This document shows positions 58,901 through 61,900 of a DNA stretch of 64,000 nucleotides, piece after piece (position 1 is the first letter of the stretch; the number at the start of each line of letters is the position of its first letter). The stretch lies in NCBI RefSeq assembly GCF_053078305.1, contig NZ_CP166879.1; one strand, given 5' to 3'. The position numbers were made by a program.

Positions 58901-61900
58901 TATATTCCCGGTTTGCCCAGTCATGGCGCCACAGACCAGAAACACCGCCACCGGTCTGCTTTTGCGGCACCCGTAGCACCTCGGGAATAGGCGGTTGCGC
59001 AACGCTTGCATGCCAGTGATCGCCTTCCTGTCCGCGCACAATCTCCCACGAACTGTAGCGATTATGATAATTCCCGCCGCCATCTTCCCAGTAATGCAAA
59101 TGATCGCTTATCAGGTGGGTATAGATCCCCGCCTTTTTAAGCAGCTCCGGCATGGAATCGTCAAACGGTTCTAACGGCCCCCACTCCCGATGCAGGAAGT
59201 TACATCGCCCGGTATGCAACTCCCGCCGGGCAGGCATACACGGCATACTGCCGACGTAACTGTTTTCAAAGGTGGCGGCATGAGCCGCCAGACGTTGGAA
59301 ATTAGGCGCTTTGGTTAACGCATCGCCATAAGGTGGCAGATAACGTTTATTCAGACTATCGAACAGCAGAATAATCGCTCTCATTACGCCCTACCTTATT
59401 GATTAATTAAATGCGGAAAATGTTGCTGAACCACTTCATAAATTTGCTGACCAATAGTTTCACCGTCCATAATATTCTCTATCGGGATCAGATATTGCCC
59501 TTGTTTCGGGTCAAGACTAACCACATCGAGTAATTTTTTGGAAATAGCAAAAATATCCGCCCAGTCGGTAAATCCGCCGACTTCACCTGCGGCGGTATGT
59601 TCCATTTCAACTTTGAAATCATATTTGGTCAGCGCTTTTTTAACGACCGTTTGTAACATAACGCTACTGCCTACACCGTAACCACAGACAAACAGAATAT
59701 TAATTGTATCTTTCATTTTTAAACCCTTAATATTTAATTAACCCGCGTAAGGACCAAGATAGAATGTTGCAGCGATAAATTTCAGAACTTCACAAATAGC
59801 AGGCCATACGGTTGCCCAGTCAAATATTCCTGTCCAGCCGACGCCATTTTCAGCAAGCCCGGTTAACGGAATAGCCCACACCGTACCGAAGGTCTGAATA
59901 ATACCCAGCAAGAACGTACAGATAATTACGGAACGGTATCCGCCCATGCGGTTTGCTAATACGCCAATTGGACCGCCAGAGAAAAACAGAGGTACAAAGC
60001 CAGGCAATACCATAATTGGGCTGTGAACCAGTAATAAGATCCCCATCGAAAAAATGGTGCCAAAAGTACAGAAGACGAAGCCTAACGTTGCGGCATTGGG
60101 TGAAAAAGGTAACAGCGCTGCAACATCGACAGCAGGAATAGCGTTAGGAATAAAGCGATCTTGCCAGCCTTTAAACGAACCGTTAATTTCGCCCACCATC
60201 ATGCGCACACCCTGCAGCAGAATGACCATATACATGGAGAACTGTAAGCCAAGGTTGATGATATAGATGTACCAGGGCTTGCCTTTCGCCATTAACTGGA
60301 CATTATCGATACCCGTTGATAGCAAGAAACCACCGACAAACAGCGTCATCACAATGGCGATAGCCGTTACGTTATGGTTAAAAATCGCCAGCCACCCGGG
60401 AAGTTTCAGGTTTTCAGCATCGTGCTTTTCAGGGTCACCAAATTTATGGGCGAATTTGGAGAAAAACCACAATCCCAACATCTGGTTATGGGCAATGGTA
60501 AAACCGGCATCTTTGGTAACTTTGGCAATGGGCTTAACAATGAGCGTGGTGGAGAACGCCCAGAATACACCCTTAATATTCCGGCAATAATAATGGATGT
60601 AGTCCAGCTAAAACCCAGCCAAAAGACAATCAACCATAATACCGCCTGAGAATGTGAAACACCGGTATTCCCTGTCAAAAATATCCCTTTGGCACCAGTA
60701 TACCGACCAAATAATACCAGCAGCAGGTTGGTAAAAAACGCCAGTACAAATACATACCCGACATAACCAAAATTATCCCCCAACGCAATTTGCGTTGCCG
60801 CTTTCATTGCGTAGGAATCCATTAAATATCCGTGAACACCATAGGCTTTACTTACGGCTTCTGCTACCGGTTTAAATGTTGCGGAAAACTGGAAACCACC
60901 AAATAACACCATCATTAATCCCACCATGGCGCTGACCATGCCGGTAATAATTTTTATTGGCGATTTCTTATCAAGGGCATAACCAATACCCACCAGCAAA
61001 CCAATTAAAATTGCCGGTTCAGTTAAAAACGTTTGAATAACATCTATGAATTTGGCAAACATCGTCGGAACGCCCTCCATAAGCGTACATTTCCGTTGTC
61101 AATGCATGAACCTTCTGCTGACGTTAATAATGTCTCAGGAAATTTTGTGTTTCGCTAAGCAATGCCTCTGTATGTATTCGGTAAGTGCACTGTAGTAATC
61201 AAAACAGTTCAATTAAAGATCTTATTTGATTATTTGTGATTTGATTTGCAAAAATAGAGCAATATATAACCGTGATCGATCGGTTATTATTAATCGATCG
61301 ATCACGATTATTATTTTGAGTGAATAGTTGTTGCCGAAAAATTTACTGCCGTGATGTATTTAAATTTTTACCAGCAGCGTCAACACTTCATAATGCGCGG
61401 TGTGAGGGAACATATCGAAAAGCTGCACCCGTTCAATGCGATAACCAGGCAGTTCTCGGATATCTTTCGCCATGGTTTGGGCGTTACAGCTGGAGTAGAT
61501 GATAAAACGCGGTGCCATCGTTGAGAGATAATCACACAGCGTTTTACCAATGCCGCGGCGCGGCGGGTTAACCAGCACCAGCTCCGGCACCTCCCCCTGA
61601 GCGGTGGCAAACTGAGTGGAGTCCAGCGCCTGAAATTGCAAACGCGTTAAGCCCAGTTCAGCGGCTGACTGCTTTGCACAGGCAATGGCCTCTGGCGCAA
61701 TTTCGATCCCGGTTAACTGCATGTCAGGCGTCGCGCAGTGTAAACCAAAGCCACCCACACCGCAGAACAGATCCCACATATGTTTAACCGGCAGCTGTCG
61801 TACCCAGTCGCGCGCGGTGGCGTACAGCTGGCTGGCGACCGCCGGATTAGTCTGGAAGAAACTTTGCGGACGGATCCACAGCGGCACATCGTTAAAACGC

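Follow-up and report, generated by a model that had tools for sequence, protein, structure and literature searches.

The window analysed here, a stretch of 64,000 nucleotides from contig NZ_CP166879.1 (GCF_053078305.1), contains a three-gene island located between rlmC and artJ, with a gene for a PTS EIIC permease placed first, a gene for an EIIB component in the middle and a sulfatase gene at the end (Table 1). Neither an EIIA gene nor a regulator was found within these three genes. The EIIB gene is intact and its exact protein (P0048) is present on at least 1000 contigs. The sulfatase gene is also intact, with an exact protein match in 1718 blocks of the collection searched, and its CMPAR sequence can be read as the motif of a Cys-type sulfatase. 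The permease gene, on the other hand, is interrupted.

Table 1. Position of the EIIC lesion, of the genes of the island and of other features of the window.
Feature	Position in the window	Strand	Remarks
Whole PTS EIIC gene (EIIC-GAT / UlaA-SgaT-like), frameshift pseudogene	59738..61080	-	1343 nt, compared with 1344 nt in intact orthologues
5' fragment ORF, 224 aa	60406..61080	-	native residues 1-169 and a 55-aa out-of-frame tail; premature stop at 60406-60408
3' fragment ORF, 247 aa	59738..60481	-	native residues 201-447; first in-frame start is the ATG at 60481
Deletion site, 1 base missing (gene-sense C, plus-strand G)	between 60573 (A) and 60572 (G)	-	alignment with intact orthologues
Second clone-private change, C to T, His441Tyr	59761	-	orthologue alignment; present in JPQG01000002.1 too
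EIIB gene, intact, UlaB-like, 106 aa	59396..59716	-	PF02302; 21 nt downstream of EIIC
Sulfatase gene, intact	57903..59384	-	PF00884; sequence contains CMPAR
Hypervariable patch	61319-61351		just upstream of the palindrome
Perfect palindrome, 36 nt, 16-bp arms	61271-61306		CGTGATCGATCG...CGATCGATCACG
Gene for a 600-aa protein	50803..52605	-	faint pentapeptide-repeat matches
amiD	49442..50272	-	non-synonymous SNP at 49896
macA frameshift	35707-35712	-	run of 7 A (GTA AAA AAA GAC) reduced to 6 A
macA ORFs	35694..35987 and 34846..35637	-	88-aa N-terminal product and 263-aa C-terminal ORF
Variable region downstream of clpA	29350-29600		small indels and clustered SNPs
serS	14363..15655		adjoins the prophage module
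Prophage late-gene/tail module	1-~14300		P2- and HP1-type Pfam hits
C-run	13167-13170		CCCC in the window

Upstream of the island, between the rlmC stop and the EIIC start, there is a perfect palindrome with four GATC sites, one unit of which (61300-61303) is missing in a relative (L013). It could be the terminator of rlmC or an operator. The short patch next to it varies strongly from strain to strain through numerous SNPs and indels.

A minus-strand ORF scan of the window returned two overlapping ORFs in the place of the EIIC gene, with exactly the coordinates given in the preliminary description, which had reported a frameshift there. The 5' ORF follows the native sequence up to WTTSIIIAGIL and goes on out of frame as RVYSGRSPP...LKT*. 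The neighbouring frame, said in that description to continue the permease, is open from position 60607, carries NIKGVFWAFSTTLIVKPIAKV (the stretch before the natural stop is also quoted as GVFWAFSTTLIVKPIAKV) and reaches the natural stop at 59738-59740. Against the 394 positions of the Pfam profile PF03611 (EIIC-GAT), the 5' ORF matches positions 2-155 and the 3' ORF positions 183-386; since both match consecutive parts of the same profile, we consider them the halves of one split gene, encoding a 447-aa permease, and not a chance pair of ORFs.

The alignment with strain ET350 and all other fetched orthologues places the lesion at a single position. The intact orthologues read GGAATATTAACGGGTGTA, whereas the window reads GGAATATTAAGGGTGTA; the intact, C-containing form of the site is TTAACGGGTG, and the form expected for a real deletion allele is TTAAGGGTG. 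What is lost is the C in codon 170 (ACG, Thr), and the gap falls inside the interval 60565-60585 to which the frameshift had previously been assigned. The missing base had been proposed to be an A, but the orthologues have C at that position, and an inserted A would likewise restore the frame, but with Lys in the place of the native Thr. The context of the deletion (TTAA^GGGTG) is neither a homopolymer nor a repeat, being a single C between AA and GGG. A phase-variable (contingency) locus was ruled out, since no homopolymer or short tandem repeat tract is found at the deleted C. When the C is restored, the gene has 1344 nt and encodes 447 aa colinear with all references, with no compensating change. 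The repaired protein differs from P0016 (WP_000399304.1), a common E. coli protein counted on at least 1000 contigs, only by H441Y. Compared with every orthologue there is one indel, and the remaining differences are substitutions, from 1 in the nearest relatives to 7 in the base-by-base alignments.

The EIIC gene and its island were found in 566 of the 5426 complete E. coli genomes (~10%), none of which has 100% identity to a 70-mer taken from the window. In this search 411 genomes fell in the 95-99% band, and the 155 of the 80-90% band have a divergent allele. In all 70 rows examined (40 listed, and 30 sampled across the ranking, among them the divergent 84.5% allele), the 70-nt query aligns to a span of 71 nt. 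The frameshift junction, as a 32-mer, had 0 matches in metagenome contigs and 0 in species-representative genome contigs, and the intact junction, used as control, matched 7 metagenome contigs. Products of the frameshift (224, 218 and 247 aa) had no exact match among ~15 billion proteins, a result of little weight, since pseudogenes receive no protein in the NCBI PGAP annotation pipeline. The junction with the out-of-frame tail, compared with 5.8 billion protein clusters, retrieved only two weak matches (41-55% identity) to unrelated fragments. Among relatives, GCA_043597085.1 has an intact 447-aa gene and differs from the window over 10.6 kb only by the H441Y SNP and the indel; GCA_018683045.1, also with an intact 447-aa gene, differs over 21.8 kb by 3 SNPs and the indel. 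The deletion thus appears to be private to one clone in the collections searched. An intact protein with Tyr441 (P0017) is found on 4 contigs, and the two places shown, one of which stands for a group with two further contigs, are distant backgrounds with 98.3-98.4% identity; H441Y was dropped as a lineage marker, the SNP being homoplastic on these two backgrounds.

The same clone is represented by a separate sequence record, the draft contig JPQG01000002.1 of strain 48, a Shiga-toxin E. coli with subAB2-3 isolated from a roe deer (PMC5323612). The contig was reached through the tape measure protein of the prophage and a private variant of AmiD, and was identified as the same clone by sequence comparison. 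The contig has 100.000% identity to the window over positions 39442-60272 (20,831 nt, including H441Y) and 61060-62787 (1,728 nt), and over positions 1-14744 (14,744 nt) it is identical save one indel in a C-run, which is CCCC in the window and CCC in JPQG01000002.1. This is the sole difference in the ~37 kb compared, and it lies outside coding sequence, close to a hok/gef-like gene at the end of the prophage. It means that the two records are separate consensus sequences and that at least one of them carries a homopolymer error. Across the EIIC site, the offset between the coordinates of both records is 131599 both at 60272 and at 61060 (window position 60572 is JPQG 192,171), so that both JPQG01000002.1 and the window have 787 nt there, one fewer than the 788 of an intact allele; this agreement is one of coordinate arithmetic and of an absent gene call, rather than of bases read at the site. 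The EIIC product call is absent both in JPQG01000002.1 and in one contig grouped with it, while a call of 447 or 441 aa is present at every other place shown for the RlmC variant that they share, within the 24 contigs read. The preliminary description named the restoration of a single continuous ORF by re-sequencing as its refutation; the second assembly has instead the same net loss of one base and no EIIC call.

The amiD gene has a clone-private non-synonymous SNP in the second position of codon 126, which was the marker by which the clone was identified. Among ~15 billion proteins, the exact AmiD variant (KFD76516.1, WP_044188310.1, YBJ01368.1) is present on just two contigs, JPQG01000002.1 and one of 5.94 Mb; the window most likely belongs to the latter.

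Other variable regions were observed in the window. A second frameshift affects macA, where the loss of one A from a run of 7 separates an 88-aa N-terminal product from a 263-aa C-terminal ORF. The 88-aa product (P0001) is found on 51 contigs, including those of Shigella flexneri K-227 and E. coli ACN001, and since the contigs shown represent diverse backgrounds (97.8-99.2% identity to the window), we regard this run as a recurrent homopolymer hot spot. For the same reason P0001 was dropped as a lineage marker. The constant coordinate offset suggests that JPQG01000002.1 shares the macA frameshift. The prophage module, which includes a DNA methyltransferase, a tape measure protein, baseplate J and a tail fibre, is covered to at least 80% of its length by only 11 of the 5426 complete E. 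coli genomes, with 97-98% identity; strain A16 has dmsA beside serS in place of the prophage. The gene for the 600-aa protein is variable and often decayed: although intact in the window, it is annotated as a pseudogene in A16 and broken into two parts (413 and 96 aa) in another relative (L017). The differences from A16 and other relatives downstream of clpA, where A16 is annotated with two tandem copies of the RtT sRNA and a tRNA-Ser, are repeat-associated variation in non-coding DNA.

The repaired protein matches PF03611 with 326 bits (residues 18-412, profile positions 2-386 of 394). The NCBIfam equivalog NF009550, named 'PTS sugar transporter subunit IIC', was scored on P0016 with 964 bits for a cutoff of 583, and membership carries over to the repaired protein of the window, because only H441Y separates both. 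Three equivalogs for ascorbate were below their cutoffs (NF006919, 321 for 380; NF007094, 354 for 687; NF009549, 130 for 890). Full-length alignments to the UlaA structures 5ZOV and 4RP8 had E values of 3e-94 and 5e-93. UlaA/SgaT, the EIIC of the L-ascorbate PTS (PTS-AG; PDB 4RP8/4RP9 from E. coli and 5ZOV from Pasteurella multocida), has PF03611 in common with the permease studied here, which is likewise paired with a UlaB-like EIIB. However, the latter is not an ascorbate orthologue, its operon partner is a sulfatase where the UlaA system has UlaC-G, and its island lacks an EIIA. UlaA contains an internal inverted repeat and binds its substrate through H194 and Q195 in the hairpin HP2 (PMC6048161). 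In our alignment Thr170 corresponds approximately to UlaA residue 166, and His198 and Asn199 correspond to His194 and Gln195 of HP2 (numbering of PMC6048161), so the substrate pocket has Asn199 in the place of Gln195. The E. coli and Salmonella orthologues grouped in NF009550 (PRK12997.1-1; WP_000399304.1) occupy the same position between rlmC and artJ. Unlike them, the copy in the window is one base short in codon 170 and cannot give the protein, the frame that should span the two inverted repeats (V-motif 1/core 1 and V-motif 2/core 2) being interrupted. It appears to be a pseudogene of the EIIC-GAT / PTS-AG family and not a working member.

A frameshift in this gene is not unique to the window. 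In the O157:H7 strain TR01 (NZ_CP033605.1), EIIC (1541-2883) and the sulfatase gene (3237-4421) are both annotated as 'frameshifted'. TR01 is intact at the window's site, its EIIC frameshift being elsewhere in the gene, and the two frameshifts mean either that this island decayed independently there or that the assembly is prone to errors. As an example of an ordinary accessory pseudogene of E. coli, the EIIC gene of TR01 is comparable to that of the window in being frameshifted; TR01 differs in the sulfatase, which is intact in the window. The lesion described here shares with ordinary strain-specific frameshift pseudogenes a single-base indel in a conserved accessory gene with intact neighbours in one lineage. 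It is an ordinary strain-private frameshift pseudogene and not a novel type of feature.

We suggest that a genuine and recent 1-bp deletion, private to this clone, inactivated the EIIC permease, and we hold this to be likely; the identity of EIIB and sulfatase to common variants fits a recent event. The gene of the strain could instead be intact, the base having been dropped in a long-read consensus and carried into both records. As an error would give, the deletion allele is seen in one clone alone, and the C-run at position 13170 shows that a homopolymer error exists in at least one of the records. TR01, with both genes flagged as frameshifted, also belongs to the long-read era. The sequencing platform of strain 48 is deduced from a later paper of the same group, in which related strains of that laboratory were sequenced by PacBio SMRT (PMC5323612). 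The two assemblies presumably rest on independent reads, or a single DNA preparation or a single set of PacBio reads may lie behind both. The errors that remain in long-read sequences are concentrated in homopolymer runs, and the EIIC site, TTAA-C-GGG, is not one of them. Moreover, two consensus sequences obtained separately give the same length across it, and in ~49 kb aligned with strain A16, containing 47 runs of at least 6 identical bases, the only coding indels are the EIIC site and the macA run; with only two such indels, the window is not indel-ridden. A consensus or assembly error is therefore unlikely in our view, and the apparent recurrence of the deletion in the other assembly of this clone is a reason not to set it aside as a sequencing artefact.

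Given a genuine deletion, translation from the normal start would produce 169 native residues followed by 55 codons out of frame. By homology with UlaA, the 5' product would retain no more than V-motif 1 and a portion of core 1. HP2, V-motif 2, core 2 and TM11 would be missing, and with them over half of the substrate pocket. The 3' ORF would start only at Met201, beyond the His/Asn pair of HP2. No working permease is expected, because residues 170-200 are in neither fragment in the right frame. Permease transport would consequently be lost, and probably also the function of the whole operon. Rho-type polarity over the ~690 untranslated nt that precede EIIB may also lower the expression of EIIB and the sulfatase.

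It is extremely improbable that the interruption is tolerated, either by a -1 ribosomal shift that makes the full-length permease or by the assembly of the two fragments as a split transporter. The open neighbouring frame does give a 202-nt overlap, which contains one heptamer of the X XXY YYZ type (A AAT TTG at 60445) and two A AAG tetramers (at 60523 and 60514), and an EIIC of the UlaA type consists of two inverted repeats. However, the frame change is not conserved, being shared by 0 of the 566 genomes, and the deletion itself (TTA AGG GTG) is not a slippery sequence. By our own estimate ~0.26 heptamers are expected by chance in the 67 codons, for one found, and that one lies 128 nt downstream of the deletion, where a shift would replace 43 residues of the membrane domain; a shift at either A AAG tetramer would replace about 17-20 residues. 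A programmed -1 frameshift was thus excluded in practice, being unconserved and having no slippery heptamer at the frame change. An internal restart at Met201 was also rejected, since no Shine-Dalgarno match was seen by eye before the ATG at 60481 in CCCATAACCAG, which disfavours production of the 3' fragment. As for a split permease, the residues missing from both fragments include the substrate-binding His of HP2.

We consider it very improbable, too, that the deletion represents, instead of neutral decay, an adaptive inactivation of sulfated-carbohydrate uptake in a wild-ruminant STEC lineage, or that the fragments form a working split permease of the elevator type (repeat 1 plus repeat 2). 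Of three clone-private changes over 21.8 kb, two are located in the 1.3-kb EIIC gene. Clustering of mutations in EIIC was nevertheless rejected: given the frameshift, one or both of the two remaining private changes would fall in the gene with a probability of ~0.12 by our own calculation, which is not significant.

Returning to the clone-private deletion as the preferred reading, its main outcome is one of annotation, and it matters little beyond that: the locus should be described as one frameshifted pseudogene (59738..61080, minus strand) and not as two short "PTS" proteins. The clone of strain 48 should be scored as lacking the accessory PTS/sulfatase uptake route. As a natural permease-null strain with EIIB and sulfatase intact, it could possibly serve as a ready-made control in the search for the substrate of this system.
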